From positions 67,760 to 131,759 of IMG/VR virus record IMGVR_UViG_3300017722_002988: a stretch of 64,000 nt of DNA. One strand, given 5' to 3'. Below are positions 10,349-64,000 of the stretch, piece by piece. The first letter of the stretch is position 1. Each line of letters opens with the position of its first letter. The notes below the pieces were generated by a model, which made no database searches, was not told the DNA's origin, and worked only from the letters and a program-made list of their open reading frames with translations. The translations under genes and the position numbers were made by a program. The stretch comes from a virus (lineage: Duplodnaviria > Heunggongvirae > Uroviricota > Caudoviricetes).

Positions 10349-10514
10349 TGATTCTGCACTTCCCGGCAACGTAAAGAGGGCCCTGATCGATGATCATGGG
10401 CCCTCGAGTACGATTGAAGAGATTGTGGCGAAGCCTGATGCTGAGCTTGTCAGGTCGGCTAATGTAGGCCGTAAAACGATTCGTCTGCTGCGGGAATACG
10501 CTGCGACTATTTGA
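10338..10514 (+). CDS. small helix-hairpin-helix protein (RNAP alpha-CTD-like), not listed in the ORF track
   Basis: 58-codon ORF overlapping the upstream stop; ELVRSANVGRKTIRLLREYA resembles an alpha-CTD HhH. Confidence 0.35.
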   Translation: MLVNDSALPGNVKRALIDDHGPSSTIEEIVAKPDAELVRSANVGRKTIRLLREYAATI

Positions 10515-11097
10515 TGGGGTTTCCCGCCTTACCTAGCATCACTTTCGTGTGCCAGTGGTCGCCAATTTTACGCTGATAGAAGTGATTCTTAAACTCAGGG
10601 TGCCTGGTAACTTCAGGATCATCATCTGGAGCGTGTCGGATCGGATCCTCATCGCCAAGGTGTTTCTTGACTTCGTCATGATCCATAGCGTGATGGTGAA
10701 GATCAGGTGTATGACGTTTCATGAAACTCAAGGACGGCCCAGATACTTCCTTGTAAGAAGTCCCATGTTCAATCTCTGATTTCATGATATGCTTCAGGCC
10801 ATGCTTGCCTTCATCGGAACCATCGGTCCCTACAGCAACGCTCTTACGACCGCCTTTGTCTTTATACATGACTGCCGCATGGACTTTGCCATCCTTTTTG
10901 TGGAGCTTCCACATAGGAATGTTCTTGACCATGTCGTCTGCGTCTTTGAATCCAGACCCGTGGATTCCGCCTATTTTTTCATAGGATTTTTGCATGAGGC
11001 CAAAGACCTCGTGTTTGTGGGCTTCTTTTTCAGCCTCGTGGTGTGGCAAGAGGTTAACGAAACGCTCTGCTAAGACAAATTCACCGAACGTTTTCAT
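10507..11097 (-). CDS. His-rich protein with an N-terminal capsid-targeting-like sequence (MKTFGEFVLAE)
   Basis: N-terminus matches the MKTFxxF(I/V)xE paralog family; shares an HKKDGKVH motif with the 61841 paralog. Confidence 0.6.
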   Translation of the reverse strand: MKTFGEFVLAERFVNLLPHHEAEKEAHKHEVFGLMQKSYEKIGGIHGSGFKDADDMVKNIPMWKLHKKDGKVHAAVMYKDKGGRKSVAVGTDGSDEGKHGLKHIMKSEIEHGTSYKEVSGPSLSFMKRHTPDLHHHAMDHDEVKKHLGDEDPIRHAPDDDPEVTRHPEFKNHFYQRKIGDHWHTKVMLGKAGNPIK

Positions 11098-11105
11098 GTA
11101 GTCCC

Positions 11106-11642
11106 CTAGTGCATCAAGTGCTTCTTCATGATATTTATCACAGGACCCATGTTAACAATCCGGTGGCCTTCACCTTTTAGCCACGTGACGTTTTTGAACT
11201 TCTTAGCAGCATAGTCAGGCTTGACAACGTCATCCTGGTCGCTCAGAAACACGTGGTGGTTCTTCGAAGGTTCGCCCTTGGCAAGATTAAACTCTGCGTA
11301 ATCTTGCAGGACTTTGGCCTCGAGGCCGAACTTGGTGAGGTTCTTAACCGGCTCAAGCGACGGGTTCAGAAGAACCATCCGCGAGCCTTGTTGCTTGGCA
11401 AAGTGATATGCCCACAAGCCGCCGGCGCTGTTGCCGACCAGGATCACGTCTTCAGGGTGATACGTATCGAAGATGGTGTTGATGGCTTTTTCAAGCTTGG
11501 CAGCGATCTTCGTCGGGCCTTCTTGGTGAACGATCGGATACGATAGCACTAGGTGTTCAGGGAAGGCTTGTTGGATGGCGACCTTGCTGTCTGCCTCCGG
11601 GCTCCCGTTAAATCCATGAAAGTATACGATACACTTAGACAC
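11106..11642 (-). CDS. alpha/beta hydrolase, YqiA-type esterase
   Basis: YFHGFNGSP and a GNSAGG nucleophile elbow; a minus-strand short-form promoter lies upstream. Confidence 0.7.
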   Translation of the reverse strand: MSKCIVYFHGFNGSPEADSKVAIQQAFPEHLVLSYPIVHQEGPTKIAAKLEKAINTIFDTYHPEDVILVGNSAGGLWAYHFAKQQGSRMVLLNPSLEPVKNLTKFGLEAKVLQDYAEFNLAKGEPSKNHHVFLSDQDDVVKPDYAAKKFKNVTWLKGEGHRIVNMGPVINIMKKHLMH

Positions 11643-11750
11643 GCTTAGCTCCTCTTACATTATCAATGTACACTTATAGGAAATGAAGTACACTGCCTTC
11701 TTAGCAATATTTATGTGTACATCATTTTCCTCGTGTCGTACATTGATAAA

Positions 11751-12395
11751 ATGAATCAGGACCGTTACAAGTACCCGAGCACGCCACACCTACCGTTGTC
11801 CAAAGGACGACAGTGGGATGACACCGCTCTTGACGGCTACGCAAACTTCATCGGCCACGAGGTCGTGATCACGGAGAAAATGGACGGTGAGAATGCTTCC
11901 CTTTACCATGACTACTATCACGCCAGATCCCTTGATTCTCGCCACCATCCTTCTCGTGATTGGATTAAGTCTTTTTGGGGTCGCGTTCGGTTTGACATTC
12001 CCGCCGGCTGGCGGTTCTGCGGTGAAAACCTCTACGCTGCTCACAGTGTCAAGTATGATTCTCTGCCTAGCTACTTTATGCTATTTAGCGTTTGGGGTCA
12101 TAACAATTATTCTCTGAGCTGGGATGAAGTCGAGTTCTGGGCAGATCTTCTGGGCATAGATACTGTGCCTGTCCTTTATCGTGGTCAATTTGACAAGACC
12201 ATCGTCGAGAAGATTGCTCGAGAACAGGATCCTGAGAAATCTGAGGGCTTCGTGATCCGGAATGCAGAGTCATTCCATTTTGATGACTTTGCCAAAAACA
12301 TGGGTAAGTACGTTCGAGTCAATCACGTACAAACCGACCAACATTGGATGTTCGCTGAGATCGTCCCAAACCAACTGAGAGACAGCAATGAGTGA
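11751..12395 (+). CDS. KxDG nucleotidyltransferase-superfamily ligase-like protein (putative RNA ligase)
   Basis: ITEKMDGENASL is a KxDG motif-I; start chosen at MNQDRYKY after the promoter box. Confidence 0.5.
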   Translation: MNQDRYKYPSTPHLPLSKGRQWDDTALDGYANFIGHEVVITEKMDGENASLYHDYYHARSLDSRHHPSRDWIKSFWGRVRFDIPAGWRFCGENLYAAHSVKYDSLPSYFMLFSVWGHNNYSLSWDEVEFWADLLGIDTVPVLYRGQFDKTIVEKIAREQDPEKSEGFVIRNAESFHFDDFAKNMGKYVRVNHVQTDQHWMFAEIVPNQLRDSNE

Positions 12396-12993
12396 GATCT
12401 TTTACACCTCTGACCTTCATTGGGGTCATGAGGCAACCTGCACCAAGTTTACCAGAAACGATGGGACTCCTCTTCGTCCATTCTCCTGTGCGCAAGAGAT
12501 GGACGAAGAGATGATCCGCCGTTGGAACGCAACTGTATCACCGAACGACAAAGTGTACGTGTTGGGCGATGTGGCTATGAGGAGCCAGCACCTGAAGACT
12601 ATGGGCCGGGTCAACGGCAAGAAGACTCTCATCCGGGGAAACCATGACATCTTCGACATCAGGGATTACCTGAAATACTTTTCCGAGGTCCATGCTATTC
12701 GGTATCCGGAAACCCGTGAGTTCGTCATGACGCATATTCCTCTGCACCCAGATTCGGTTCGTGAGAGGTATAAGTACAATATCCACGGGCATCTGCACGC
12801 CAACCGGGTGACTATCGAAGCCGAACGCACTATCAGAAAATATGCCGACGGATCCTTTGACAGTGAGATTGTTAGGGTCACTGACCCGATGTATTTGAAC
12901 GTGTGTGTTGAACACACCGACTACACTCCAATCTCACATGACGAGGTCCTCCGCCGGATTCGCCAACAGCAAGAGGATTTTAACAATGCCTGA
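12388..12993 (+). CDS. calcineurin-like metallophosphoesterase
   Basis: DLHWGH, GDV and GNHD motifs; coupled to the ligase-like gene. Confidence 0.8.
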   Translation: MSEIFYTSDLHWGHEATCTKFTRNDGTPLRPFSCAQEMDEEMIRRWNATVSPNDKVYVLGDVAMRSQHLKTMGRVNGKKTLIRGNHDIFDIRDYLKYFSEVHAIRYPETREFVMTHIPLHPDSVRERYKYNIHGHLHANRVTIEAERTIRKYADGSFDSEIVRVTDPMYLNVCVEHTDYTPISHDEVLRRIRQQQEDFNNA

Positions 12994-13297
12994 ACCAACC
13001 GTTATGATCATAGTGGCAAGTCTTGTTGTATTGGCCTGCTTGACGTTTCTGACATGGGTCCTGCTTATCAGGCCGGGTCATCTCACAAAGCTTCATGACC
13101 AAGTAGTCGATGAAACTACTTCGGCCGTGCTTGAAGCGTGTCTGTCTTATGGACAGAGCCAACTCTCGTCTAGCGAGTATGAGAGATTCAAGACCCTGCT
13201 GACTGCCGAAATCAGTGAAGGCGCAGGCGGCATTAGCCTGGCGGTTCTCGTTGAACGCTGCATTGCAGAAGCTAGAGAGGAATCCAATGAAGCGTGA
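12987..13297 (+). CDS. small membrane protein
   Basis: Hydrophobic N-terminal helix VMIIVASLVVLACLTFLTWVLLI. Confidence 0.45.
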
Positions 13298-13484
13298 ATG
13301 GACTCCCATCACTGAAGATCAAAAAGATGGACGCATCTATCTCTTAGGAATCCCAGATAAGAAGATCGGCCCTTGGATGGGTTATTTCTGGAAGAACGGC
13401 AACTGCTGGCTCCAATGCGATCTTCCAGCCCACGGCAAGATGCCCACCCATTACTATGACTTGACGGGATTGCTTTTCGAATGA
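13287..13484 (+). CDS. hypothetical small protein
   Basis: Start at the internal ATG (MKREWTPITEDQ) preceded by GAGG. Confidence 0.4.
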   Translation: MKREWTPITEDQKDGRIYLLGIPDKKIGPWMGYFWKNGNCWLQCDLPAHGKMPTHYYDLTGLLFE

Positions 13485-13729
13485 ACGCTCTTGAGTTTGA
13501 CCGCGACGTTTTCATGGAACAGGGGTTCCAGTTCACTAAAAGCGGTAACAGCTGGATGGTCTCTGTTTTAGAGTCGTGGACCTCTGAAGGGGAAACGTGG
13601 CGCTTCATCGGCCACACCATGGGCCGAGAGGATCGTTGGGCCTCAATCAATTTCCGTAGAACGACGATCGGGCACAAGAGCCGCCTTGAGGCTGCTCAGC
13701 AACTCGAGAGATTATTTTACGGTAAGTGA
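13481..13729 (+). CDS. hypothetical protein
   Basis: ORF coupled to its upstream neighbour. Confidence 0.45.
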   Translation: MNALEFDRDVFMEQGFQFTKSGNSWMVSVLESWTSEGETWRFIGHTMGREDRWASINFRRTTIGHKSRLEAAQQLERLFYGK

Positions 13730-13734
13730 ATTTA

Positions 13735-13777
13735 GTTGTGTACCTATTTTCCAGTTATCGTATTATGAGAATGTAAC
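13735..13777 (+). promoter_or_regulatory. phage promoter motif (TTGTGTAC, N17, TATTATGAGAATGTAA)
   Basis: Matches the recurrent consensus; lies upstream of ORF 13790. Confidence 0.6.
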
Positions 13778-13789
13778 TTGGAGCTACCT

Positions 13790-14059
13790 ATGATGATCAA
13801 CGTTCTGGATGGCCGGGACATTCGTTCGGTTTCTCGTGTGGAACTGCAGCGGATTTCTGAGCAGCTGATGAAGATCACGCGGACGCTGAACCAGGAAATC
13901 GGAATGCGCAACGCCTCGGACAGCTTCGTCTACGGCTGGAGAAACACGGACGGTAGCGGAACGTACACGACGTTCGATACGTTCCTGGAAGCTTGGGCCG
14001 AAGCTGAAAAGCAGCTTGGTTCGGGCGGAGGTTATCGAGTGCAGAACGTGCATCTGTAA
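13790..14059 (+). CDS. hypothetical protein
   Basis: ATG downstream of the promoter with a GGAG RBS. Confidence 0.5.
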   Translation: MMINVLDGRDIRSVSRVELQRISEQLMKITRTLNQEIGMRNASDSFVYGWRNTDGSGTYTTFDTFLEAWAEAEKQLGSGGGYRVQNVHL

Positions 14060-14064
14060 GAGAT

Positions 14065-14335
14065 TCAACCGGCGAGGCCGGGGTCATTGCAAAGGACCGG
14101 GTGCGAATCCCGGGGGCAATGGGTGCAACTCCCTAAGCCCGCACGTTAGCCGGTAGTGATTGGATAATGTCTGGACCCGAGGTTGCAGCCTTGGCCCTCC
14201 ACACATGCGAAAAGAGTAGTGAGACTAGCTTAAGCTGGATAGAGCGGGGACCCTGCGGTCCTAGGTACACGGGTTCGAGTCCCGATTCACTTTCGTCCCC
14301 CGAGGCACTGCAATGACTTGCGGGGCCTCTTTTCG
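14065..14335 (+). ncRNA. candidate structured non-coding RNA with two T-arm-like hairpins (CCGGGTGCGAATCCCGG; CGGGTTCGAGTCCCG)
   Basis: About 270 nt with no ORF, lying between a CDS and the next promoter; tRNA-like T-arm motifs; ends at a GC stem plus CTCTTTT. Confidence 0.35.
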
Positions 14336-14351
14336 TATGCGCCACTTTTTA

Positions 14352-14389
14352 TTGTACATATTTGTCAGACGGTGTAGGATAAGAATATG
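14352..14389 (+). promoter_or_regulatory. phage promoter motif (variant with TAGGATAAGAATATGAG -10)
   Basis: TTGTACA box plus the variant extended -10 shared with the 27725 copy. Confidence 0.5.
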
Positions 14390-14620
14390 AGAAATGTTGA
14401 CACACAAATTCACGCCGTCTTTGAGTCCGCTCTGGATGATATGTACGTCTTCCCTGACAACTCGACCCTGCGTCGCGAGTCTGGCAAGACTCCAAATGGC
14501 AATGACATGGATGGCCAATGGGTCTACCGTGACGCTAATGGGAATTTCCTTGACTACGGCTCGTACCGCCACGACCTGGCGGATCGCTTTAATCTCGTCC
14601 TCTATCCCAGAATCGTCTGA
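14387..14620 (+). CDS. hypothetical protein
   Basis: ORF downstream of the promoter. Confidence 0.5.
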   Translation: MRNVDTQIHAVFESALDDMYVFPDNSTLRRESGKTPNGNDMDGQWVYRDANGNFLDYGSYRHDLADRFNLVLYPRIV

Positions 14621-14725
14621 CATGAGAGTCATTAAAACCAAAATCGACCTGAGCATTCCGCTTGGGATCTTCTTCCGCTTTCCAGAGACCGGCTTCGTTC
14701 TCTGGACTCTGCTGGGGCGCGTGCT

Positions 14726-20217: not shown

Positions 20218-21237
20218 ATGAAAGAATATAAGACTGCGGTCGTGATCATGCGAGCACAACCGCCACACATCGCCCACGTTGAGCTAATCCGTGAGGCATA
20301 TGACATCGCCGATCACGTCATTTTGATTTTTGGCAGTTCGTATCTCCCCCGATCCTACAAGAACCCATTTACTTTCGATGAGCGTAAGAGCATGATGCTC
20401 GACGCCCTCTATGATGCTGGTATGCCAGCCTTTAGCGGTTTCGAGTATCACGGTTCGCCGGACTTCAATGACAACAACGCTTGGGCAGCCAACATTCAAG
20501 AGTTGGTCGGCGACAGCGGCAAGACGGTTCTCGTCGGACACATGAAGGACAACTCGAGCTTCTATCTCGACATGTTCCCCCAATGGGATCGCTTTGACCC
20601 CGGCCTGGTTCATCCCCTGAATGCGACGGACGTGCGAGATCTCTATTTCCGCAAGGACTGCAATCTCCGTTATTTCTCAGACGTTCTGCCAACCTCTGTC
20701 ATTTCGTTCCTGCGTGCTTTCAAAGCAACCGAGGAATATCAGCAGGTCATCCGCGAGCGCGAACATATCGAAATGTATCGTCGCCAGTATGAACATCTCC
20801 CATACGCTCCAGTCTTCGTGACGGTTGACAACGTCATTTTCCAATGCGGTCACATCCTGATGGTCAAGCGTCGCTCGGAACCGGGCAAAGGGCTCTGGGC
20901 TCTACCCGGTGGATTCCTGAACGCGGCGACCGATCATTCTCTTGAGGATGCTGCCATCCGAGAACTGAAGGAAGAGACCAAGATCAAGATCCCTGTTCCT
21001 GTTCTCAAGGGTTCCATCAAGGGCAGCAAAGTCTTTGATGCGATCAACCGCTCGGCACGTGGACGGACCATCACTCACGCCTTCCACTACGTTCTTCCTG
21101 ACGGCGAACTGCCTAAGGTTCGTGGTGCTGACGACGCTGAGAAGGCCGTGTGGATTCCGATCTCGCAAGTCAATCGTGAAGAGTGCTTTGAAGACCACTA
21201 CCTCATCATCCAACACTTCGTGGGAGCCACAAAATGA
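20218..21237 (+). CDS. natV: bifunctional NMN adenylyltransferase / Nudix hydrolase (NadM/NatV-like)
   Basis: N-terminal nucleotidyltransferase PPHIAH; C-terminal Nudix box GGFLNAATDHSLEDAAIRELKEETKI. Confidence 0.8.
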   Translation: MKEYKTAVVIMRAQPPHIAHVELIREAYDIADHVILIFGSSYLPRSYKNPFTFDERKSMMLDALYDAGMPAFSGFEYHGSPDFNDNNAWAANIQELVGDSGKTVLVGHMKDNSSFYLDMFPQWDRFDPGLVHPLNATDVRDLYFRKDCNLRYFSDVLPTSVISFLRAFKATEEYQQVIREREHIEMYRRQYEHLPYAPVFVTVDNVIFQCGHILMVKRRSEPGKGLWALPGGFLNAATDHSLEDAAIRELKEETKIKIPVPVLKGSIKGSKVFDAINRSARGRTITHAFHYVLPDGELPKVRGADDAEKAVWIPISQVNREECFEDHYLIIQHFVGATK

Positions 21238-21506
21238 GAGTCTTTGTCTGGGTAGGCTATGGTAACAGTAGCGTCTATTACGCTGAGACACAAGAAGATC
21301 TTCGCAAGATCTACAACGAGGTTCGTAACGCTCTTCGGGACTTTTATACTCCTGAAGAATTCATCGAGACCTTTGGTCCTGAGCCTGATCTTCTCAGCCA
21401 CATTCGTGAGAGAGACGTTTGCGACATGATCGAACGCTTCGGCGGCTTCGGTCAGCACGACTCATTCGAATGGGGTACCGAATTCACCAAACTGCTGGGT
21501 CGATAG
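21234..21506 (+). CDS. hypothetical protein
   Basis: Coupled ORF. Confidence 0.45.
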   Translation: MRVFVWVGYGNSSVYYAETQEDLRKIYNEVRNALRDFYTPEEFIETFGPEPDLLSHIRERDVCDMIERFGGFGQHDSFEWGTEFTKLLGR

Positions 21507-21539
21507 ACGACCTCGCTTAAACCGCAAAGGAGCTTTGCA

Positions 21540-22907
21540 ATGCTAAACGAAAACAACATCATCTTCAACTCGGATTCCTACAAGTACAGTATGTACCTCC
21601 AGTATCCGCCAGAAACGAAAACCGTCTATTCTTACATCGAGAGCCGCGGAGGCAAGTGGGATTCGACTGTTTACTTCGGCCTCCAGGCTTTCATCAAGAA
21701 GTATCTGTTGACTCCGGTCACTATGGAAGACATTGATGAAGCCGAAGCAGTTATTCTGGCACACGGTGAACCATTCAATCGTGCCGGCTGGGAATACATT
21801 GTCAACGCTCACGGAGGCCGCTTGCCGATCGTGATCCGTTCGGCTCCTGAGGGTTCTATCATCCCCGGCAAGAACGTCCTGCTGGTTATCGAGAACACCG
21901 ACCCGGAATGCTTCTGGCTGACGACCTTCCTCGAGACGGCTCTGCTTCGTGCCATTTGGTATCCGACTACGGTCGCTACAAACTCTTATGAGTCCAAGAA
22001 GGAGATCTTGTCCTACCTCGAGAAGACCGGTGATCCTGAATCGATCGGCTTCAAGCTGCACGACTTTGGTGCACGTGGTGTGTCTTCCAAGGAATCTGCC
22101 GGCCTCGGCGGCATGGCTCACCTTGTGAACTTCAACGGCACCGACACTGTGATGGGTCTTGTCTACGCTCGCAACTTCTACGGTGCCGATATGGCCGGCT
22201 TCTCCATCCCTGCTGCCGAGCACAGCACCGTCACGTCGTGGGGCAAGGAGAACGAAGTTCTGCCTTATCGGAACATGCTGAAGCAGTTTGCTCGTGAGGG
22301 AACGGTTGTGGCGGTTGTTTCGGACAGCTATGACATCTTCAATGCTTGCGAGCTTTGGGGAACCGAACTGAAGCAAGAGGTGATTGACTCGGGTGCAACT
22401 GTCGTCATCCGTCCGGACTCCGGCAATCCTCCTGAGGTTGTTCTGTCGTGCGTTCAGATCTTGGACAAGAACTTTGGACACACGCTCAACGCGAAGGGCT
22501 ACAAAGTCCTGAACAACGTGCGTGTCATCCAGGGTGACGGCATCGACAAGCAGATGATCCGTGCCATCCTCTACACTCTGACTCTGGCCGGCTACTCGGC
22601 TGATAACGTTGCCTTCGGTCAAGGTGGAGCCCTCTTGCAGATGGTCAACCGTGACGACCTGGCTTTCGCCATGAAGTGCTCGGCCATTCAAATCGGTGAC
22701 CGTTGGGTTGAGGTTTTCAAAGACCCGATCACTGACCAGGGTAAGAAATCTAAGAGAGGTCGTGTTACCCTCTATCAAGAGAAGGATGGGACCTTCCACT
22801 CCGGCGTCGAGGATTGGCAAACGCCGGCCCTTGATGAGGTCTACCGAGACGGGGTTCTCGTCAAGGAAACCACCTGGGATGAGGTCACTGCTCGGGCAAG
22901 AAAATAA
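21540..22907 (+). CDS. nadV: nicotinamide phosphoribosyltransferase (NAMPT/NadV)
   Basis: 455 aa; NAMPT-family similarity (YSIPAAEHST, GDGID); paired with natV as in KVP40-type phages. Confidence 0.85.
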   Translation: MLNENNIIFNSDSYKYSMYLQYPPETKTVYSYIESRGGKWDSTVYFGLQAFIKKYLLTPVTMEDIDEAEAVILAHGEPFNRAGWEYIVNAHGGRLPIVIRSAPEGSIIPGKNVLLVIENTDPECFWLTTFLETALLRAIWYPTTVATNSYESKKEILSYLEKTGDPESIGFKLHDFGARGVSSKESAGLGGMAHLVNFNGTDTVMGLVYARNFYGADMAGFSIPAAEHSTVTSWGKENEVLPYRNMLKQFAREGTVVAVVSDSYDIFNACELWGTELKQEVIDSGATVVIRPDSGNPPEVVLSCVQILDKNFGHTLNAKGYKVLNNVRVIQGDGIDKQMIRAILYTLTLAGYSADNVAFGQGGALLQMVNRDDLAFAMKCSAIQIGDRWVEVFKDPITDQGKKSKRGRVTLYQEKDGTFHSGVEDWQTPALDEVYRDGVLVKETTWDEVTARARK

Positions 22908-24379: not shown

Positions 24380-24838
24380 ATGACTATAGCAGATATGATC
24401 ACGAAGAAGCCTTGTATGTATTGCTCCAGAGAAATATCTTTGGGTAACATAGCAAAACATGAAAGGTCTTGTATAAAAAATCCTGGCAATGCCAAGATCT
24501 GTCCTTCGTGCTCTAAGCCATTCTTCTCTTCAGGCACTACATGCTCTTATGCCTGTTCAAATAAACATTTCCGGTCTGGATCGAATCATCCTAACTGGAA
24601 GCCAGATGGTTATAAGAACATGTGCTGGGAACATCATGGCAAGAAGTGTCTTGTTTGTGGTGAAGAAAAGATTGTTACGGTCCATCATGTAAATGAGGAT
24701 CACGATGATAATAGGCCTGAGAATGTAGTTCCGCTTTGTCCGACGCACCATCACTATGTGCACAGCCGATACAAGAACGAAGTTCAACCTATTATCGAAG
24801 AATATTTACATACGTTTCAACTGAGTCGACGAGGCTAG
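24380..24838 (+). CDS. HNH homing endonuclease
   Basis: N-terminal CxxC...H...C zinc finger; HHVNEDHDDNRPENVVPLCPTHHHYVH HNH motif. Confidence 0.7.
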   Translation: MTIADMITKKPCMYCSREISLGNIAKHERSCIKNPGNAKICPSCSKPFFSSGTTCSYACSNKHFRSGSNHPNWKPDGYKNMCWEHHGKKCLVCGEEKIVTVHHVNEDHDDNRPENVVPLCPTHHHYVHSRYKNEVQPIIEEYLHTFQLSRRG

Positions 24839-25171: not shown

Positions 25172-25319
25172 GACAGAGAAAACCCAAGCGTCTGGAGCCA
25201 TGGGCGAGGCCAGTAAATAGCCTGTGTGTATCTCAAAGGGGCAGCTTCGTGGTCTCGAGCTGTTGTGGAGGTTCGCTCTCCGTATTTTATAAATACAGGA
25301 TAACACTAGAGGATCCTGC

Positions 25320-25700
25320 ATGAAAACGTTCAGACAACACATCGTAGAAGCCGTCGTTACCAGAAGTCTTCATGACATTTTGACTAAGGATCACGGATTC
25401 AAGCACGAAGAAGTTCACGGCGAAGGGTGGAGAAGCCCTCACTCTAGAGGTGTTGATCAATATCATACCTCAGAAATGCTTGAACCTGAGGATACACATA
25501 AGATTCTCACTAAAGCTGGTTACACGCATCTAACAAGATCCAAGGCCGATTCTAGAGTTTCTCTCGACAAGCATGTTCATTACGAAAAAGAACAGCTAGG
25601 TAGCAGACATTCTGTAACTGTGCATCATGAAACTGGGTTTGGCGATGCTCCTAAAGAAGTTAGCCACATTACGGCCCAGTGGCATACCACAAGAGATTAA
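25320..25700 (+). CDS. His-rich protein with a capsid-targeting-like N-terminus (MKTFRQHIVEA)
   Basis: Member of the MKTFxQ(H/F)(I/V)xE paralog family. Confidence 0.6.
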   Translation: MKTFRQHIVEAVVTRSLHDILTKDHGFKHEEVHGEGWRSPHSRGVDQYHTSEMLEPEDTHKILTKAGYTHLTRSKADSRVSLDKHVHYEKEQLGSRHSVTVHHETGFGDAPKEVSHITAQWHTTRD

Positions 25701-25796: not shown

Positions 25797-26459
25797 ATGA
25801 AGTCTTTTAGAGAACACATCGTCGAAGCCAAGGGCGTCACTCACTCAGCCCTCAGCAAACAGGTTGAGAAGCTATACGACGCCCATAAGGCTGGCAGTAA
25901 TGACCATGAAGTTGTTCATGTGAAGAAGAATGCCCACACGGGAGCATCTAGTTATAGCAGTGGTTCTGTCAAAGCCAATACACTAGCTTACCGACATAGA
26001 GCTGGTGTGAAGTACGTCGGTCACCCGATGAAGGACGATGTCCAGAAGCTGATTAAGAAGCACGGCGGGACCTCTACAGGATCTTCGGCTAACGGCAACG
26101 AGGGTGGCTATATTGACACCTCGGACGGCTATCGCCACCATTTCACTCGTCAGCTTGGGTCGAACTACAATACGTTCGACCATGAGGTTCACAAGAAGCA
26201 AATCTCTGAAGAGATGACTGACGACGAGATCGATGCGCATAACGATAGCTTCAATGAGAAGGTTGCTTCTGCTCACGATAAGTACATCACCAAGCATTTT
26301 GGTAAAAATGCCGATGTGAACTGGGGTTCAGGTCATGATGAAGACGGTGAACACGGAATGTTTACCTCTAAAGTCTTCCATCCAGATCATGGCCGAGTTT
26401 ATGTAACGACACATTATAACACCAAGACGCACAAAGTGCTCAAGCACGAAGAAGAATAA
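25797..26459 (+). CDS. His-rich protein with a capsid-targeting-like N-terminus (MKSFREHIVEA)
   Basis: Paralog of 25320, 60831 and 61841. Confidence 0.6.
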   Translation: MKSFREHIVEAKGVTHSALSKQVEKLYDAHKAGSNDHEVVHVKKNAHTGASSYSSGSVKANTLAYRHRAGVKYVGHPMKDDVQKLIKKHGGTSTGSSANGNEGGYIDTSDGYRHHFTRQLGSNYNTFDHEVHKKQISEEMTDDEIDAHNDSFNEKVASAHDKYITKHFGKNADVNWGSGHDEDGEHGMFTSKVFHPDHGRVYVTTHYNTKTHKVLKHEEE

Positions 26460-26667: not shown

Positions 26668-27297
26668 ATGCAAACACTCTGTCAATTCTGCGATAAAAGC
26701 TCTAGTAACCCTGGGGCATTAGCAAAACATCAAAAACACTGTAAAAACAATCCCGGCTACGTTAAGGCTTTTAGGAGTCCTAGAGCTGGGGCAAAAAAGG
26801 GTAGTACTCCTTGGAATAAAGGGAAATCTGGAGTTTACTCTTCTACAACCCTTGACAAAATGCGATCTTCTGGAGGACACCTTCATACCGAAGAGACCAA
26901 AAACAAGTTAAGTGTCATCGCTAAAAATAGCGGCCTCGGCGGATATACAAAAAATGGAGGTCGAGGCAAAAAAGGATATTTCAAAGGTATATGGTGTGAT
27001 AGCTCGTGGGAACTGGCCTATGTCATTTTCAATCTTGATCATGGGCATAAGATAGAGAAAAACTCTAAAGGCTTTCCTTACGAGCATGAAGGAAAAACAA
27101 AGAATTATATACCGGATTTTGTTTTAGAAGATGGCACATACGTAGAAATCAAAGGTTATTCTACTGAACAATGGCTACACAAGCAACACCACTTCAGTTA
27201 TCCATTGGTTACGCTATATAAAAGCGATATGAATACATACCTTTCTTATGTTATCGAAAAATACGGAAAGAATTTCATAGATCTTTACGAGAAATAA
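26668..27297 (+). CDS. putative homing endonuclease (Zn finger, NUMOD3-like, PD-(D/E)xK-like)
   Basis: CQFCDK...HQKHC finger shared with the HNH ORF; HTEETKNKLS NUMOD3-like repeat; IPDFVLEDGTYVEIKG. Confidence 0.5.
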   Translation: MQTLCQFCDKSSSNPGALAKHQKHCKNNPGYVKAFRSPRAGAKKGSTPWNKGKSGVYSSTTLDKMRSSGGHLHTEETKNKLSVIAKNSGLGGYTKNGGRGKKGYFKGIWCDSSWELAYVIFNLDHGHKIEKNSKGFPYEHEGKTKNYIPDFVLEDGTYVEIKGYSTEQWLHKQHHFSYPLVTLYKSDMNTYLSYVIEKYGKNFIDLYEK

Positions 27298-37240: not shown

Positions 37241-37864
37241 ATGTTGTACACCATCTATCGCGTGACTCATCTAGAATCCGGGAAGTGCTACATTGGAAAA
37301 CATCAGACTAGGGACCCTAATGATGGATACATGGGTTCCGGTCAACTTATAAGACGTGCCGTCAAGAAGCATGGATTGAGCGCCTTCAAGAAAGAGGTTC
37401 TTCATGTCTTCGAAACGGAGTCCGAGATGAACGCTAAGGAGGCCGAAATGGTCACCGAGGAGTTTTGTGCTAGAGACGACACGTATAACGTGTGCCCAGG
37501 AGGGCAAGGTGGTTGGGGCTATGTGAATCGTACAATTTTAAGTCCAGCTGAGAGATATAAGAGAAGCTCAAAAGGCGGTAAAGCTGCTTTTGAAAAGTTT
37601 CCTGATTCTTTCAAGAAAGCGTGTATCGCCGGCGGAAAGTCCACCGGAGCTAAGAACGGAAGCAAAAATCAAGCATCAACACTTACTGAATCTGCGAGAC
37701 TAAAGCGAAAAGCGACCATGAAAGCCAATAGGCATATGTGTGGAGCTAAGAATAGTCAGTTTGGAACTTGCTGGATTACAGACGGGGTCTCTTCTAAAAA
37801 GATCCAAAAATCAGAAATTGAAAACCATCCTGGCTGGGAAAGAGGCCGGGTTATTAGAGGATGA
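37241..37864 (+). CDS. GIY-YIG homing endonuclease (Seg-like)
   Basis: IYRVTHLESGKCYIGKH...YMGSG GIY-YIG motif. Confidence 0.8.
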   Translation: MLYTIYRVTHLESGKCYIGKHQTRDPNDGYMGSGQLIRRAVKKHGLSAFKKEVLHVFETESEMNAKEAEMVTEEFCARDDTYNVCPGGQGGWGYVNRTILSPAERYKRSSKGGKAAFEKFPDSFKKACIAGGKSTGAKNGSKNQASTLTESARLKRKATMKANRHMCGAKNSQFGTCWITDGVSSKKIQKSEIENHPGWERGRVIRG

Positions 37865-40677: not shown

Positions 40678-40848
40678 ATGTCCTCATGCAGAATTAGAGA
40701 TATTCCCGAAGGCTGGGGTGGTAACGGCTGTTCTGAAGGATTCGGTGGCCTGCGCATCGGTGATGGCGGCTCAGAGTTCGTCGAAGGCGACAACGGCCTC
40801 GGCGGCATTGAAGGCTGGCCAGATCTCAGCGCTACAGAATCAATTTAA
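40678..40848 (+). CDS. Gly-rich small protein (56 aa, not listed in the ORF track)
   Basis: Its stop overlaps the next ATG (TAATG); preferred over the listed 40649 ORF, which starts inside the tRNA. Confidence 0.3.
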   Translation: MSSCRIRDIPEGWGGNGCSEGFGGLRIGDGGSEFVEGDNGLGGIEGWPDLSATESI

Positions 40849-41153
40849 TGAAACCCTTCAAAGACTTCATTACTGAATCTGCCGACATTCATAAAGCCGT
40901 CGGCGATAGAGACACCTATGATGTGACCCATGCGCCGGATTGTGATCGCAAGCACATCACTCTTGGCCATGGCCATGGCATTAAAGTTGTCGTCCATAGT
41001 GACGAGACCGATGATAAGACAGCCTCGGAACACCGTGAGATTGTCAAGAAGAACTTGGCAGCTGCAGGACATCGAGTAGCTCATGTCGGCATTTTGCATT
41101 CTTCCCCGGAAGAGAGATCTTTCCATCTTACCGTGTTCGGTAAGGACAAATAG
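40848..41153 (+). CDS. His-rich protein with a capsid-targeting-like N-terminus (MKPFKDFITES)
   Basis: CTS-like N-terminus; HGHGIKVVVH. Confidence 0.5.
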   Translation: MKPFKDFITESADIHKAVGDRDTYDVTHAPDCDRKHITLGHGHGIKVVVHSDETDDKTASEHREIVKKNLAAAGHRVAHVGILHSSPEERSFHLTVFGKDK

Positions 41154-41853: not shown

Positions 41854-41925
41854 GCACCTATGGCCTAATGGTTAAGGCAGGGGTCTCTAAAACCTTGAAT
41901 CCGGGTTCGAGCCCCGGTAGGTGCA
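41854..41925 (+). tRNA. tRNA with anticodon CTA (amber-reading, suppressor-type)
   Basis: Perfect acceptor GCACCTA/TAGGTGC; D-arm GCCTAATGGTTAAGGC; arm GGGGT-CTCTAAA-ACCTT; T-arm CCGGGTTCGAGCCCCGG; CCA. Confidence 0.6.
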
Positions 41926-42181
41926 CCAAGTTTCAGTTTTCCCCTCAAGAGGGGAGATGGAGACCACAAAGGAGAGTGCTATCATGGACTAATCTGACTC
42001 TGTAGAGATAGAATGATTTTTGATAGATAAAGTTTAATTGGTAAGAACACCGTCCTCGAGACGAAAAGGAAAAAGATATGCATTCGTAGAATCGCTGTCA
42101 ACATGACCCTCCGTGATGTAAAGATCACATTACACTAAGACCACTTATGGTAACACCATCTTTACATTACGGAGACGTCAA

Positions 42182-47472: not shown

Positions 47473-47542
47473 CCAGCCGTAGTGTAGGTTTGCACGGCAC
47501 CCATTTGGGGGTGTTAGACTAGGTTCAACTCCTAGCGGCCGG
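47473..47542 (+). tRNA. tRNA-like with a 6-nt anticodon loop
   Basis: Acceptor CCAGCCG/CGGCCGG; CACCC-ATTTGG-GGGTG; T-arm CTAGGTTCAACTCCTAG; CCA. Confidence 0.35.
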
Positions 47543-47741
47543 ACCAAGACCCGTCCTAAGGATTCTGTGGGACGTTAAATCACTAGGAATCGGGCTTTCT
47601 CTCCTTTGCCTTAAGAAAGGAGACTGGAATCAGCCTAGAAGAGCTGGTCGAAGTCCCGTAATGTGGCACCGCCTCCGTCCGGGCGACCCTCGCAAAGGGT
47701 TAAGAGATCGGCATGGTAACCGAAATCAGGCTTCCAATTTA

Positions 47742-47825: not shown

Positions 47826-47969
47826 CCAAATTTGATGCGGACCACCTCGGACGTGGTTGCCAAGTCTGGCCAGACGGTAGAAGCCCTCGGCCGAGGGCGG
47901 ACACTTATAAAGTGATTTGGGTAGGTGGTTCGAATCCGCCCACTTTGATGGCAACGCATCAACTCATTC

Positions 47970-59460: not shown

Positions 59461-59670
59461 ATGAGCCAACTCATTCTTAACGACGGCCAGAACACCCAAG
59501 TCGTCACCACTGACCTGTTTCTGGACGCTTTCCGCCAGGCAAACATGTCTGACCCGTCCGGCATTGCCGAGACTCTGGTCAACATCTTCCGTAAGCACGC
59601 TAGCCCTGAAGAGGTCCAGCAACTGGAAGAGATTGCTGCCCAGTCCACTGCGCAATATCTCGAAGGCTAA
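59461..59670 (+). CDS. hypothetical protein
   Basis: ORF. Confidence 0.45.
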   Translation: MSQLILNDGQNTQVVTTDLFLDAFRQANMSDPSGIAETLVNIFRKHASPEEVQQLEEIAAQSTAQYLEG

Positions 59671-59694
59671 TAGACCTTCCAAAACACACTCGTG

Positions 59695-59730
59695 AAGCCC
59701 GCTGGATCGTTCTGGCGGGCTTTGCTTTTT
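59695..59730 (+). terminator. rho-independent terminator (AAGCCCGC, loop, GCGGGCTT-TGCTTTTT)
   Basis: 8-bp stem plus T-run. Confidence 0.75.
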
Positions 59731-59769
59731 ATGGACGATAAATACCACATGAACTGAGGCAAGGAATCT

Positions 59770-60834
59770 ATGGACTACAAAGTTGTAGGCGCAGCATTGA
59801 CAGAAGCAGTTAAGGCCTACAACTTTCAAGTGGGCCCGAAAGCGATTGGCGGTAAGCCTGGCAAGAACATTAAAAACATGAGGGAGTACCGTCTCCAGCT
59901 CATTAACAAACATGACGACACCTCAGACAAACTGAAGGCGGACCTCAAGGGTATTCTGGAGAAGACATTTGGCGGGGCCATCAGTCACCTCAAATTCAAC
60001 CCGGTGTCTCCTAACAGCTCCAAATACTCTAGCTATTCGTTTGAGCTAACTAACCAAATGTATGATGTGGTTATTGCACGGGGAGCCAACAAAGGTGAAA
60101 ACTTTGAAGTTGTTACTACCAATAACCTAGCCGCTGCATTTCATACAAGGGGTGGAACAACGGAGTTCCACAAATTGATTGAGCAACTCAATAATGCTCA
60201 CGATGGATTCGAGCAGGTAGAGATCTCTAAGGTTGAACAGCGCAAGGGAAGCACCCGCAAAACTGGGGTCCCTCTAGAGCGCCTAGGTGAAGTCATCGGC
60301 GATATTATTCTCACTGATGAGAATAACCACAAGTGGTTCGTTAGCCTGAAAGACGTCAACGGTATTACCTTCTCCGCTTTCCCCGGCGGCGGCACTCTAT
60401 TTGATAAGCAGGGCAATCTTCAGCCTAGATCAGACGGCGCCAAGTTTCTACAGGCCTTCGGCGTAGATCTGGCCAAGGTCCAAGATGGATTTGACGAACG
60501 CCGTGGTAGCATCGAGAATGCTAATAACCGTGAAAACATTCCTACAGGTGGAAGGCCTGATCTAGCCAAGATCAAAGCCCTCTTTGAACAGGCCTGGGGC
60601 ATGAACTATTTCTACGTACGAAAGAAGTCATTTGGATGGGAAGTGTTTTGGCTAGATAGGGCGATGCTCACAAAGCTTGCATCGAATATCAGGATCGAAG
60701 AGATCCGGTACCCTAGCAAAAAGTCAAAATCGATAATGATTCTGTGTACAAACCAATACAAGAAGTATAAGGTGGAAATGCGAAACTCTGCGGGTAGGGA
60801 ATACCCGAACGATATTAAGTTTAGTGTCCGATGA
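59770..60834 (+). CDS. hypothetical protein (354 aa)
   Basis: Long ORF with an AGGAATC RBS; no recognised motif. Confidence 0.55.
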   Translation: MDYKVVGAALTEAVKAYNFQVGPKAIGGKPGKNIKNMREYRLQLINKHDDTSDKLKADLKGILEKTFGGAISHLKFNPVSPNSSKYSSYSFELTNQMYDVVIARGANKGENFEVVTTNNLAAAFHTRGGTTEFHKLIEQLNNAHDGFEQVEISKVEQRKGSTRKTGVPLERLGEVIGDIILTDENNHKWFVSLKDVNGITFSAFPGGGTLFDKQGNLQPRSDGAKFLQAFGVDLAKVQDGFDERRGSIENANNRENIPTGGRPDLAKIKALFEQAWGMNYFYVRKKSFGWEVFWLDRAMLTKLASNIRIEEIRYPSKKSKSIMILCTNQYKKYKVEMRNSAGREYPNDIKFSVR

Positions 60835-61841
60835 AAACATTTGCCCAATTTGTAACCGAGAGCCTGGGTCGCATGACGACCTATGACGAAATTGTGCACG
60901 CCATTGCTGCCTATAAGAAAGCCGGAGAGATTCCGAATCCTGTATATCAGGATCTCGGCAGCCAAGCTCGCCGTGTTTTTGGAAAAGAAGCAGGAGCCGG
61001 ACGGGACTTGATCCTTAAAGTCATGCATGCTGGTGACGGTGCACAAAACCGAGATGATGACATCTCTGACTTGTATTATGCATGGCCGAGCGATTCATTC
61101 CAAGGCCTTATCAAGTTCGAGAAGATTCTCCTCAAAGTCGAGAAGATGAACAAGCCGAATATGGCCCCTGTCATTAAAGCCGGCAAGGACGTTCTAGCTA
61201 ACTGGAAACCAGTAGCAGATGACCTGAAAGTCTTGAAGGACAAGATCGTCAAGATGACCACCAAGCGTGCTGAAGCCAAAGAGGTCGCAGCCAAAGAGAT
61301 GGGTGCAAAGTTTGCTGATTCATCCTCGTTGATCAAGGTTCTTGAGAGCCATCTCGGCGAATACAAAGCTGCTGCTCATCAGCGGGCAGTTGAGTTCATC
61401 AAGTCCAAGCTTGACTTCCTCATGAAGCATGATTGGGATCTCAATAAAGCTGTGCCTCGCCACACGGGTCATTACGGAACTGCTTACAAGATGACCGAAA
61501 GCCAGCGGTCTCTTTATCGGTCTATTACGAGGAGCAAGTCGGCCAGCCTCCGTGTTGGAGAGCCTGATATTCGTGAGCCGGACCAACACCTAATCGACCG
61601 CTATGTTCTAGCCAGTGTCGCAGGTGCTGAAGCTAGTTATCGTGAATTCATGCACAAGATGATTACGAAGATCGGTAAGCCGGTTGTTAACGCCAAAATG
61701 ATTGGCAACATCTGGACTAATGCTATCCTGACAGTTACGACCAATGACGGTGAAGAGCAAGTCTGGAACACGAAGATGATCCTGAACTTCTCGAAATATC
61801 AAACCATGTTCAACCAGTTCCCATCCCGCAGGAAGAAATAA
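60831..61841 (+). CDS. protein with a capsid-targeting-like N-terminus (MKTFAQFVTES)
   Basis: Paralog family; start overlaps the upstream stop (ATGA). Confidence 0.6.
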   Translation: MKTFAQFVTESLGRMTTYDEIVHAIAAYKKAGEIPNPVYQDLGSQARRVFGKEAGAGRDLILKVMHAGDGAQNRDDDISDLYYAWPSDSFQGLIKFEKILLKVEKMNKPNMAPVIKAGKDVLANWKPVADDLKVLKDKIVKMTTKRAEAKEVAAKEMGAKFADSSSLIKVLESHLGEYKAAAHQRAVEFIKSKLDFLMKHDWDLNKAVPRHTGHYGTAYKMTESQRSLYRSITRSKSASLRVGEPDIREPDQHLIDRYVLASVAGAEASYREFMHKMITKIGKPVVNAKMIGNIWTNAILTVTTNDGEEQVWNTKMILNFSKYQTMFNQFPSRRKK

Positions 61842-62776
61842 TGAAGACGTTCGCACAGTTTGTAGCCGAGGCGTCCATTCGTCAAGGTCTGCCCCACATC
61901 ACGACCATGAACCATGAGCAGTTCAAAAACCTTCTCCATAAAGACGGCAAGGTTCACATTCACGATGTGACTGAAAAGACCGATGGTATGACCCACGTGA
62001 TGGGCCACGACGAACATGGGTTCTACACTCAATCGTCTGGATCAGGCAACGAGAAAATGCGTAGCCCTGAGGATTTCCACACGCGCGCCAAGCGCCGTGC
62101 TGAGGAAACTGGGAAGCCTTACAACCCTACTGCTGCCAACGCCTTTGGCCACGTCCACAAGATGATGCAGTCTAACAAGGCCGTAACCGATCACCTGGCA
62201 GCCGCGCATGCTAAGCACGGTGAGACCAGGATCCGCGGTGAGGTTTTCTACAAGCCGCTAGGCACTCCATCTGAGACCCACAAGCACGAGATCAAGTTCG
62301 TAGGAACCTCGTACGATCCGTCCCACATGGCTGAGCATGGCAAGTACGTCATTCACACAAAGCTGCCTGACAACCACCACGTGGACGCTGAGGCATTCAA
62401 GAGGCACTCTACGGCTCACATCAACTTCGATGATGACAAGACTCACATCACGACCGGACACGTCGACGCCTCGGATGAACACAAAGAGTTCCACAAACTC
62501 GATCATGACTTGATCAACTCGCGGACTGTTCCGAAGAACAAGGAAGCCAAGATGGCTGAGCTGGCCAAGATGGCTCACATCCAGAAGCGGGTTGCTGATA
62601 AGGTTGATGATCACGTCAAAAAGTTAGGTGTTACGCCTAAATGGGGTTCTGGCAGTGAAGGACTTGTGATACATCCATCTAAGCATAACCCAAATGCTCC
62701 GAGGTTCAAGGTAACCTCTGACGCATTCCGGGCCTATCGGGCCGACCCTAAGACTAAGGACAAGTGGAAGAAATGA
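61841..62776 (+). CDS. His-rich protein with a capsid-targeting-like N-terminus (MKTFAQFVAEA)
   Basis: Paralog family; shares HKDGKVH with the 10507 protein. Confidence 0.6.
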   Translation: MKTFAQFVAEASIRQGLPHITTMNHEQFKNLLHKDGKVHIHDVTEKTDGMTHVMGHDEHGFYTQSSGSGNEKMRSPEDFHTRAKRRAEETGKPYNPTAANAFGHVHKMMQSNKAVTDHLAAAHAKHGETRIRGEVFYKPLGTPSETHKHEIKFVGTSYDPSHMAEHGKYVIHTKLPDNHHVDAEAFKRHSTAHINFDDDKTHITTGHVDASDEHKEFHKLDHDLINSRTVPKNKEAKMAELAKMAHIQKRVADKVDDHVKKLGVTPKWGSGSEGLVIHPSKHNPNAPRFKVTSDAFRAYRADPKTKDKWKK

Positions 62777-64000
62777 AAACCTTTATCTCCTACATCGCTG
62801 AAGGCGGTAACATCAAAGTAGGTGAGCACGAAGCTGCTCCCTTCACAATGACCGCTCAGAACCGCGACTCACGGGTCAAAGACATCCACGACTCTATGCA
62901 TGAGCTAAACAAGTCGTTCCACGCTGAGCATGGTCATGACCTGTTCCATGGCGGCAAAGCCCACTATGGTGGTTCCTCCATGCAGCTGATGGACAAGAAC
63001 ATTCCAGCGGCTGAGTTCGCAAAGCACAAGCCACAGGTTGGTGATGTTGACGTTCATGTTCCTCATGAGCACGGGGACAAGCTACATGCCCATCTGAAAA
63101 CTGGAGCACGCTTCGGCAAGTACACCGTTGCAGGAACCAAGAAACACGGCATCGACGTTTCGGCTGTGATGCAGCATGACAATGGCGAACTGCATCAAAT
63201 CGACTTCATCAAAGGCAAGCACGGGCGTGCTGAGCAATCCTTCTTGCATTCGTCTCACTGGGACGACGTCAAGCGTGGTGTGAAGGGTTCTCACCACAAG
63301 CTGCTCCTTAACGTGGCAGCAGGCGACACGCACAAGTTCTCCATCTCCGGCGGACTGAAGTCCAGAACCGATGAAGACGACAAGGGGCACCAACACCCTG
63401 AGAAGATCTCTAAAGCCCTGTTTGGTAAGGATGCTGACCACTCGAAGATCCATTCGTTCCATGGGTTGGCTGAGCTGGTTCGTGATCACATTCCTGCATC
63501 TAAGCATCAGGACATCTACAACCGGTTCAAGTCGTCCACCGATCGTGCTGGCCGTGATACCGATCACACCAAGGCAATCGCCCATCTGAAGAAGACTCTG
63601 AATGCCAAGGATGAAGTGAAAGAATCTCTCGATGAAGAAAAGATCCGCTGCGAATCCTGCAAAGGCCGTGGAATGAGAATCAAGTTCACGAAGTCAGGGC
63701 CTCTAAAGGTTCCTTGCGGTATCTGTCTATCTACTGGGAGTCTTGAACATAGGACCAAGGCACTAGCTGAAGAAACTGAGCACCACGCTTCAGTCATTCC
63801 TTTGGTTGGTTTCTCCCCCATCTCCCATATGGGTCACGCCCATGATCTCGGTGGAGCCATGAAGAAACTACCTGGCAAAAAGCACATCGGTATCTCTCAG
63901 AAGGACGACGTGTTTTCGCCTGAGGAACGCTCCCACATCATGAAGAAACAGTGGGCCCAAGAAGGCGTCAATCACCACTTCACGAAGTCCGGTGGTGACA
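62773..64000 (+). CDS. His-rich protein with a capsid-targeting-like N-terminus (MKTFISYIAEG), 3'-truncated by the window edge
   Basis: 409 codons read by hand with no stop; C-terminal CxxC...CGIC; absent from the ORF track because there is no in-window stop. Confidence 0.55.
   Translation, partial: MKTFISYIAEGGNIKVGEHEAAPFTMTAQNRDSRVKDIHDSMHELNKSFHAEHGHDLFHGGKAHYGGSSMQLMDKNIPAAEFAKHKPQVGDVDVHVPHEHGDKLHAHLKTGARFGKYTVAGTKKHGIDVSAVMQHDNGELHQIDFIKGKHGRAEQSFLHSSHWDDVKRGVKGSHHKLLLNVAAGDTHKFSISGGLKSRTDEDDKGHQHPEKISKALFGKDADHSKIHSFHGLAELVRDHIPASKHQDIYNRFKSSTDRAGRDTDHTKAIAHLKKTLNAKDEVKESLDEEKIRCESCKGRGMRIKFTKSGPLKVPCGICLSTGSLEHRTKALAEETEHHASVIPLVGFSPISHMGHAHDLGGAMKKLPGKKHIGISQKDDVFSPEERSHIMKKQWAQEGVNHHFTKSGGD

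Follow-up and report, generated by a model that had tools for sequence, protein, structure and literature searches.

Seven open reading frames (ORFs) in a 64,000-nucleotide (nt) stretch of tailed-phage DNA (Caudoviricetes; IMG/VR record IMGVR_UViG_3300017722_002988, positions 67,760 to 131,759; hereafter the window) begin with nearly the same ten or eleven residues. These N-terminal leaders, carried by ORFs named A to G here, are quite probably T4-type capsid-targeting sequences (CTSs), that is, detachable propeptides of 10-11 residues that stand before unrelated proteins and serve both targeting and cleavage. The mechanism is an already known one and the new part is the cargo, of which the two assignable members, F and G, are putative nucleic-acid or nucleotide enzymes according to their predicted structures.

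Seven ORFs with a common N-terminus

An initial annotation of the window had reported seven ORFs with a common N-terminus, and all seven were confirmed by ORF listing, translation and six-frame scans. In window coordinates they are:

10507-11097, minus strand: A, 196 amino acids (aa); leader MKTFGEFVLAE (11 residues, 11065-11097); predicted mature start RFVNLL; 10.7% His
25320-25700, plus strand: B, 126 aa; leader MKTFRQHIVE (25320-25349), next residue A; 12.7% His
25797-26459, plus strand: C, 220 aa; leader MKSFREHIVE (25797-25826), next residue A; 10.5% His
40848-41153, plus strand: D, 101 aa; leader MKPFKDFITE (40848-40877), next residue S; 10.9% His; Asp-rich
60831-61841, plus strand: E, 336 aa; leader MKTFAQFVTE (60831-60860), next residue S; 2.7% His
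61841-62776, plus strand: F, 311 aa; leader MKTFAQFVAE (61841-61870), next residue A; putative RNA-ligase-like nucleotidyltransferase
62773 to past the window end (64000), plus strand: G; leader MKTFISYIAE (62773-62802), followed by an invariant GGN

The full length of G (525 aa) comes from L002, a metagenome contig that overlaps the window. When three patterns of decreasing strictness were scanned over all six frames, exactly these seven window ORFs, starting MK[TSP]Fxx[FHY][IV]x(x)E, and nothing else were returned, and the leader pattern had no match in 200 shuffles of the sequence. The seven leaders stand at true ORF starts, each being the first ATG and lying 2-29 codons past the upstream stop. 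All have Phe at position 4 and Phe, His or Tyr at position 7, and they end in IVE (B, C), ITE (D), IAE (G), VTE (E), VAE (F) or LAE (A). Their codons differ synonymously (AAA/AAG, ACG/ACA/ACC, TTC/TTT, CAA/CAG), which indicates that the peptide is constrained rather than the DNA or RNA.

Six of the proteins (all but E) contain 10.3-12.7% His against a background of 3.3%, a content of at least 10% that is reached by none of the 56 other ORFs of at least 100 aa (Fisher p = 1e-7). The description of the set as strikingly His-rich is accordingly right for six members and wrong for E, and the His-richness of the six is unexplained. An internal motif HKKDGKVH had also been listed as shared; a 7-residue HK(K)DGKVH match does exist between A and F, two otherwise unrelated proteins.

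Leader boundaries in homologs

In phage T4, the first 10 residues of internal protein (IP) III are enough for packaging; mutagenesis of the IPIII CTS mapped targeting mainly to residues 4 and 7 and processing to residues 8 and 10, and the protease gp21 cleaves after L/I-x-E (PMC9026906). Leaders of the G family were gathered without use of the motif, through homologous mature parts. A recognisable start was present in 116 of the best 120 homologs, the other four being F+G fusions, and in 115 of the 116 a leader of 10-20 residues ending [ILVMF]xE was found directly before the invariant GGN. Among the 66 G-family leaders of ten residues, position 4 is Phe in 61, position 7 is Phe or Tyr in 64, position 8 is Ile or Leu in 64 and position 10 is Glu in all, with the remaining positions variable. 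The most conserved positions, 4, 7, 8 and 10, are precisely those that are experimentally important in the T4 IPIII CTS.

Homologs without a leader locate the junction from the other side. The metagenomic protein P0061 and the proteins of Vibrio phage Va1 and Xanthomonas phage BUDD, which are the only cultured-phage homologs of G, start MGGNV, and BLASTP aligned residue 11 of G to residue 2 of the MGGNV homologs, so that the leaderless start coincides with the predicted mature N-terminus of G. In the F family, 109 of 114 leaders end in h-x-E plus 0-2 small residues before a conserved IRQGLPH, at leader lengths of 3-29 residues, and some are double-motif leaders, e.g. MKTFLSYISEQALITE followed by AG, as in T4 IPI.

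Relatives of A, B, C and E mostly retain the leader as well. A leader ending xE precedes the conserved RF[IV]NL in 10 of 11 A homologs in IMG/VR (L128-L138), with HWLNF at this place in L133; it is present in four of four B homologs and in three of four IMG/VR relatives of E (L141-L143; L140 lacks an in-frame ATG at the match start). Seven of eight retrieved C relatives start with a leader ending h-x-E, and P0249 (MLKFSEINESA...) falls outside the motif. AlphaFold models of F and G, computed with metagenomic alignments, reached a predicted local distance difference test score (pLDDT) of 91.5 and 88.0, respectively; the score falls below 50 at residues 1-11 of G and 5-14 of F and is ~88-92 elsewhere in each model, and as modelled the leader is not part of the protein fold. 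A signal-peptide reading of the leader was considered and rejected, the leader being too short (ten residues), containing Glu and having no hydrophobic core.

Distribution and gene neighbourhood in IMG/VR

The back-translated pattern MKTFxQF[IVM]xE was found at at least 120 IMG/VR loci, for an estimated ~1 chance match. All of the listed matches lie at the starts of ORFs of at least 40 codons, whose products are very diverse; in several contigs there are 2-5 of these ORFs. In a local tblastn search of flanks of a few kb with core proteins of phiM12, T4 and the window, T4 core genes were found near the leader in 67 of 136 leader-bearing loci. The large ORFs of the remaining loci matched PHROGs for baseplate-wedge, primase, helicase, single-strand DNA-binding protein, ribonucleotide reductase (RNR) and cytidylyltransferase.

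Genes of the prohead core adjoin the leader ORFs in several of these loci. Both gp21 and gp22 stand beside leader ORFs in L014, L109, L123 and L125, and gp21 alone does so in L097. In L123 (2604-7895) the order runs from the portal gene to a gp67-like gene, a leader ORF (8% His), another leader ORF (7% His), gp21, gp22, gp23 and a last leader ORF (8% His), an order that puts leader genes in the slot of T4 gp68, inside the prohead-core cluster. Five leader ORFs lie in tandem between gp19 and gp18 in L043 (6505-9422). An RlpA-type lytic transglycosylase of ~135 aa with an MKTFxQF..E leader is encoded directly downstream of gp23 in L014 (5135-5554, minus strand), L030, L048, L119, L124 and L125, and is a candidate packaged peptidoglycan-cutting enzyme by its sequence and location. 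At the position of LTE-A in T4 gp23, its maturation site, gp23 of L014 has LYE-A and gp23 of L123 has LTE-N; these predicted sites fit a conserved protease specificity.

Predicted enzymes F and G

Comparison of the predicted structure of F showed an RNA-ligase fold, with both an adenylyltransferase fold and a motif I lysine (KxDG) present. The sequence EKTDG at residues 45-49 corresponds to ligase motif I, and in an alignment of 49 sequences E45-K46-T47-D48 are conserved and G49 is nearly invariant. F is on this basis a putative RNA-ligase-like nucleotidyltransferase. No sequence-level match to F was found in Pfam, NCBIfam or PDB, tblastn of F against a collection of 50,697 phage records returned nothing, and family profiles of F and G had no match among PDB sequences at an E-value cutoff of 1.

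G was matched by Foldseek in two parts. Residues ~12-283 matched PolX (probability 1.00) as well as Cid1, TUT1 and FAM46, and contain GDVDV from residue 90, with G90, D91, D93 and also D144 invariant or nearly so. Residues 333-525 matched NadD and PPAT (probability 0.94-1.00) and contain SHMGH at residue 351, with H352, G354, H355 and S476, G477, T478 and R481 invariant. This C-terminal domain had no Pfam match reaching threshold, and tblastn gave weak matches to cyanophage cytidylyltransferases. In its predicted structure G is a Pol-beta-type nucleotidyltransferase fused to an HxGH nucleotidyltransferase of NadD/PPAT type; the former shows the Pol-beta fold and a G[GS]...DxD carboxylate motif, the latter a Rossmann-like fold, HxGH and a motif of ISxxxxR type towards the C-terminus. 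The CxxC pairs pointed out earlier in G are present (CxxC...CxxC, 63649-63726); they lie within a low-confidence insertion (residues 284-332) and occur in only the five closest of 120 homologs.

Natural F+G fusions were found in four metagenomic proteins of 813-893 aa (P0058, P0083, P0093 and P0096), which carry a leader only at the F end. The F and G domains are also encoded by adjacent genes in Xanthomonas phage BUDD and Vibrio phage Va1, and in Va1 a tRNA nucleotidyltransferase adjoins them. Because they are fused in some relatives and adjacent in these two isolates, F and G probably act together on nucleic-acid ends or nucleotides.

His-rich proteins A to D and protein E

Scans of the seven proteins against Pfam, PHROGs and NCBIfam gave no usable assignment beyond phrog_4687, which covers the C-terminal half of E, and weak hints. 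A to D had no curated family match in these three databases, the match of D to phrog_24925 being weak (E = 0.0095). A was without a match in Pfam or NCBIfam, and the A-family profile had none among PDB sequences even at an E-value cutoff of 10. Pattern searches of IMG/VR returned no relatives of B, C or D; relatives of B and C turned up in larger protein collections.

C consists of two modules (approximately residues 11-135 and 136-220). An exhaustive HMMER search found 10 relatives of C, and each of the eight that were retrieved holds only one of its modules. Two of the four B homologs have a different His-rich module between the leader and the B module, and the same accessory modules precede the B module and the C-terminal module of C (P0253 and P0248; P0254 and P0247), a recurrence which indicates that small His-rich modules have been shuffled behind a constant tag. 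The isoelectric points (pI) of B, C and D are 6.6-6.9. The C-terminal half of E also matches a hypothetical protein of ViI-like phages, and the E homolog of the isolate CBA120 (orf232) has no leader.

Source phage and arrangement of the genes

The window encodes a T4-type DNA polymerase gp43, UvsX, gp41 helicase, gp44 clamp loader, an RNA ligase and NAMPT, and gp45, gp62, RegA, gp46, gp47 and UvsW are encoded in the window or just upstream on contigs that overlap its left end. The DNA polymerase is at most 44.6% identical to any in the 50,697 phage records, with Sinorhizobium phage phiM12 and cyanomyoviruses as best matches, and megablast of 6 kb of the window against the same records returned nothing. 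From this T4 replication core, the polymerase identity and the lack of a DNA-level phage match, the source is an uncultivated and distant member of the T4 superfamily. Identical or near-identical contigs originate from freshwater metagenomes.

The window contains 38 tRNA genes (23777-48045). Two of the leader ORFs had been counted inside this region; there are in fact three (B, C and D), each with tRNA genes before and after it and, at one end or both, only 7-15 nt away. The end of B is 8 nt from a tRNA-Thr gene, C is flanked by two tRNA-Thr genes, and D lies between tRNA-Cys and tRNA-Val. At the right end of the window, E, F, G and an upstream gene X are translationally coupled through ATGA and TAATG overlaps, that of X and E being ATGA. 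X is the following feature:

59770-60834, plus strand: X, 354 aa; first gene of the X-E-F-G operon; start MDYKVVGAALTEA; no canonical leader

X has LTE at residues 10-12, as in LTE-A, and only a weak match to phrog_8438; its N-terminus may be a variant propeptide. Past the window end, L002 carries four genes (4037-7527; 428, 156, 387 and 194 aa) without a canonical leader, three of which encode basic proteins (pI 9.5-10.0, ~10-12% Lys). The 194-aa protein contains 11.9% His and starts MNRLIE, and its homolog in L123 bears a canonical MKTYHQFITE leader beside gp23.

Late-promoter-like signals

The T4 late-promoter core ATAAATA occurs 21 times in the window, a count that none of 100 shuffles reached (4.2 ± 2.2). 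Every site lies on the strand that codes for the next gene. Examples of these sites, and the cores next to leader ORFs and X, are as follows:

8496, 16545, 23580, 24368, 25289, 26657, 28122, 35731, 37202, 47127 and 59738, plus strand: ATAAATA sites
11138, 11714, 18102 and 31189, minus strand: ATAAATA sites
11132-11139, minus strand: GATAAATA, late-promoter-like core, 34 nt upstream of the ATG of A
25288-25295, plus strand: TATAAATA, exact T4 late-promoter core, 24 nt upstream of the ATG of B
59737-59744, plus strand: GATAAATA, late-promoter-like core, 25 nt upstream of X, preceded by a hairpin and then a T-run

Late promoters of cyanomyoviruses read NATAAATA. The core at 25288-25295 probably also serves the downstream tRNA-Thr and C; C and D have no late-promoter motif of their own and are probably transcribed on upstream transcripts. 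If the motif is a promoter, its placement agrees with synthesis during prohead assembly.

Other features of the window

Some ATAAATA sites lie directly before tRNA clusters or homing-endonuclease-like ORFs. The latter are found amid the tRNA genes at 24380-24838, 26668-27297 and 37241-37864, each with CATAAATA just upstream; one of them is Cys/His-rich and HNH-like and another starts in a GIY-YIG-like manner. The tRNA genes include one with anticodon CTA (41854-41928), which is amber-reading and was labelled Pyl by ARAGORN, one at 47874-47947 that is labelled Tyr and whose anticodon is ATA, and one at 47473-47546 that could not be assigned. Immediately upstream of A and on the same, minus strand, 11106-11642 encodes an alpha/beta-hydrolase of the UPF0227 family (Pfam E = 1e-19), which has its own CATAAATA upstream. 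At 20218-22907 a nicotinamide phosphoribosyltransferase (phrog_448, E = 4e-153) adjoins a 339-aa ORF whose N-terminus, with PPHIAH, looks like that of a nucleotidyltransferase; the two may be an NAD salvage pair.

Proposed mechanism and alternative explanations

We propose a mechanism modelled on T4 IPIII, in which a tagged protein would attach to the gp22/gp21 prohead core late in infection through its aromatic residues 4 and 7. A gp21-type prohead protease would cut after the Glu of [I/V/L]-x-E (Glu10, or Glu11 in A) and free the mature protein inside the head, from which it would leave with the DNA at the next infection. Predicted cargo would be F (ligase-like), G (a double nucleotidyltransferase), E, and A to D as small His-rich proteins whose modules are shuffled behind the leader. 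We infer packaging, cleavage, ejection and any host role of A to G from this analogy. Rather unlikely is the further proposal that F and G form an injected RNA/tRNA end-repair or nucleotide-transfer module, which would be made late, loaded by the CTS and present before phage gene expression. In a phage with 38 tRNA genes it would counter, pre-emptively, host anticodon nucleases or other defences directed at RNA or nucleotides; the tag would then be readable as the mark of an injected proteome.

It is conceivable, if somewhat unlikely, that A to D are targeted to the prohead but are internal structural, DNA-associated or accessory scaffold proteins, like IPIII and gp68, that serve head assembly or DNA condensation. 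Two His-rich leader ORFs of L123 do lie at the gp68 position, between the gp67-like gene and gp21, no enzyme family was matched by A to D, and the IPs of T4 are basic, DNA-binding proteins present at ~300 copies per head, of which IPIII influences head morphogenesis (PMC9026906). B, C and D are not basic, however, the genes are dispersed here among tRNA and replication genes and not in a head module, and F and G are clearly enzymes by their predicted folds. A role of the leader outside the capsid, whether as an mRNA-level translation enhancer, as an N-terminal mark (a degron or a regulatory tag) read by a cytoplasmic protease, or as an export or membrane signal, appears improbable. Starts with AUG-AAA are in general favourable to translation, the leader is found very widely, and its presence on a peptidoglycan-cleaving RlpA-type protein could suggest export; but conservation at positions 4, 7, 8 and 10 is at the amino-acid level with synonymous variation, the h-x-E end at the domain boundary is constant while leader length varies, F and G, having nucleotides or nucleic acids as their substrates, would be cytoplasmic enzymes, and the leader is specifically associated with T4-like head genes and a gp21 motif.

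The initial annotation had regarded the seven proteins as paralogs, in which case the N-terminus would be a structural element conserved by descent. Their common N-termini, the similar His/Lys/Asp-richness of six of them and the match between A and F would suit such a history, which is nevertheless very hard to sustain: in an all-against-all BLASTP the best pair, B and C with their leaders, had an E-value of 5e-5 and most pairs exceeded 0.01, the folds of F and G differ, and the leader is modelled with low confidence. Leaderless homologs exist, and the two modules of C each occur alone, nearly always behind a leader of their own. The same annotation had taken the leader for a CTS and propeptide of T4 type, and this part is well supported by the T4-superfamily placement of the phage, the mutagenesis-mapped positions, the [ILV]xE junction and the prohead-core location in relatives. 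It had further likened the set to anti-restriction effectors such as IPI*, the GmrSD inhibitor of T4; no member resembles IPI* in sequence, and the two assignable ones are putative enzymes of nucleic acids or nucleotides.

Several points count against a packaged and processed set of proteins. A, E and F have Val at position 8, for which the T4 rule is Leu or Ile. There is no close isolate in the 50,697-record phage collection by megablast of 6 kb or tblastn of F. Head genes, including gp21 and gp22, are not found in the window, in the 5 kb downstream or in the 9-10 kb upstream, flanks that hold only replication, recombination and nucleotide-metabolism genes or genes without a Pfam match; as members of the core genome shared by T4 relatives (PMC2993671), gp21 and gp22 are expected in the source phage, which has the T4 replication core. 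In phiM12, the closest isolate by DNA polymerase, no leader ORF was found in the first 50 kb, which include the head module, and the system is for this reason not universal among T4 relatives. D, for which neither a Shine-Dalgarno sequence nor a homolog was detected, is the weakest member. Nearly all members of the F and G families have the leader, which could also play a part for the enzymes themselves. The late-promoter reading, finally, is only the match of a short motif to T4 and cyanophage late promoters.

Should the tag work as it does in T4, a ten-residue motif would mark, from sequence alone, which proteins uncultivated T4-like phages package and deliver. An injected proteome, including lytic transglycosylases and shuffled His-rich modules, would become readable from metagenomes. 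No proteins are harder to find than those present in the first seconds of an infection, and none are likelier to decide its outcome against host defences. The predicted cargo here consists of enzymes and combinatorial His-rich modules, not of small inhibitors like IPI*. With the tag on at least 120 viral contigs and hundreds of metagenomic homologs, a candidate catalogue for counter-defence screens could be drawn up, and natural CTS variants would be a resource for T4-based protein-delivery vectors.

Comparison with known systems

A literature search found no description of this tag, with its functional positions conserved, in T4-like lineages that are distant and uncultivated, none of the tag on RNA-ligase or nucleotidyltransferase enzymes, on a lytic transglycosylase or on shuffled His-rich modules, and none of seven tag copies in 64 kb. 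An isolate with both virion proteomics and the leader was sought in phiM12, CBA120 and S-CBWM1 and none was found; the RlpA match of S-CBWM1, a domain inside a large protein of its tail region, is uninformative.

The closest parallel is the set of T4 IPs. The T-even internal proteins are a diverse set with only the CTS in common (PMC3012670, PMC9026906), and the likeness extends to an N-terminal propeptide of 10-19 residues of the form MKT[YF]xxF[IV]xE, with aromatics at positions 4 and 7 and h-x-E at 8-10, and to mature parts that are mutually unrelated. IPI, IPII, IPIII and Alt had all been said to start MKTYQEFIAE; in the T4 record this holds for IPII and IPIII (MKTYQEFIAEA), to which the start of F (MKTFAQFVAEA) is very close, and not for IPI, which starts MKTFKEFTSTTTPVSTITEA (MKTFKEFTST...ITEA), or Alt, which starts MELITELFDE. 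The double-motif leaders of F homologs resemble that of IPI. T4 ipII and ipIII lie on one side of the tRNA region and ipI on the other, comparable to the location of B, C and D here. Differences are that the phage which carries the leaders is only distantly related to T4, that Val is frequent at position 8 and that seven members lie in 64 kb against three in the whole of T4. The predicted cargo differs as well, comprising large enzymes and shuffled His-rich modules of which none resembles IPI*, IPII or IPIII; no member matched an internal-protein family in PHROGs or Pfam, and no T4 IP is resembled beyond the leader.

T4 Alt, an ADP-ribosyltransferase that gp21 cuts at L/I-x-E sites, offers a precedent, being a large enzyme that is carried in the head and ejected with the DNA (PMC9026906); it differs in the lack of an IP-type leader and in belonging to an enzyme family other than those of F and G. 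In the giant phages phiKZ and SPN3US, many head-internal proteins are cut after Glu by a gp21-related prohead protease (PMC5694885, PMC7411985). Processing by a prohead protease after Glu is the point of likeness to the mechanism proposed here. The cleavage motif of such phages is S/A/G-x-E and their propeptides are long and dissimilar; their ejection proteins are not known to have a common 10-residue tag.

In BUDD and Va1 the gene cluster comprises a Pol-beta-type nucleotidyltransferase, a ligase-like protein and a cytidylyltransferase, and the proteins of these isolates have no leader; compared with the window, the domains are split or fused otherwise, and the ligase-like and cytidylyltransferase parts of Va1 form one protein. 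The closest known proteins to F are the RNA ligases Naegleria NgrRnl, T4 Rnl1 and Rnl2, trypanosome REL1 and fungal Trl1, from which F is distinguished by its N-terminal leader, its His content of ~10% and, in some phages, its fusion to a Pol-beta/HxGH nucleotidyltransferase protein.

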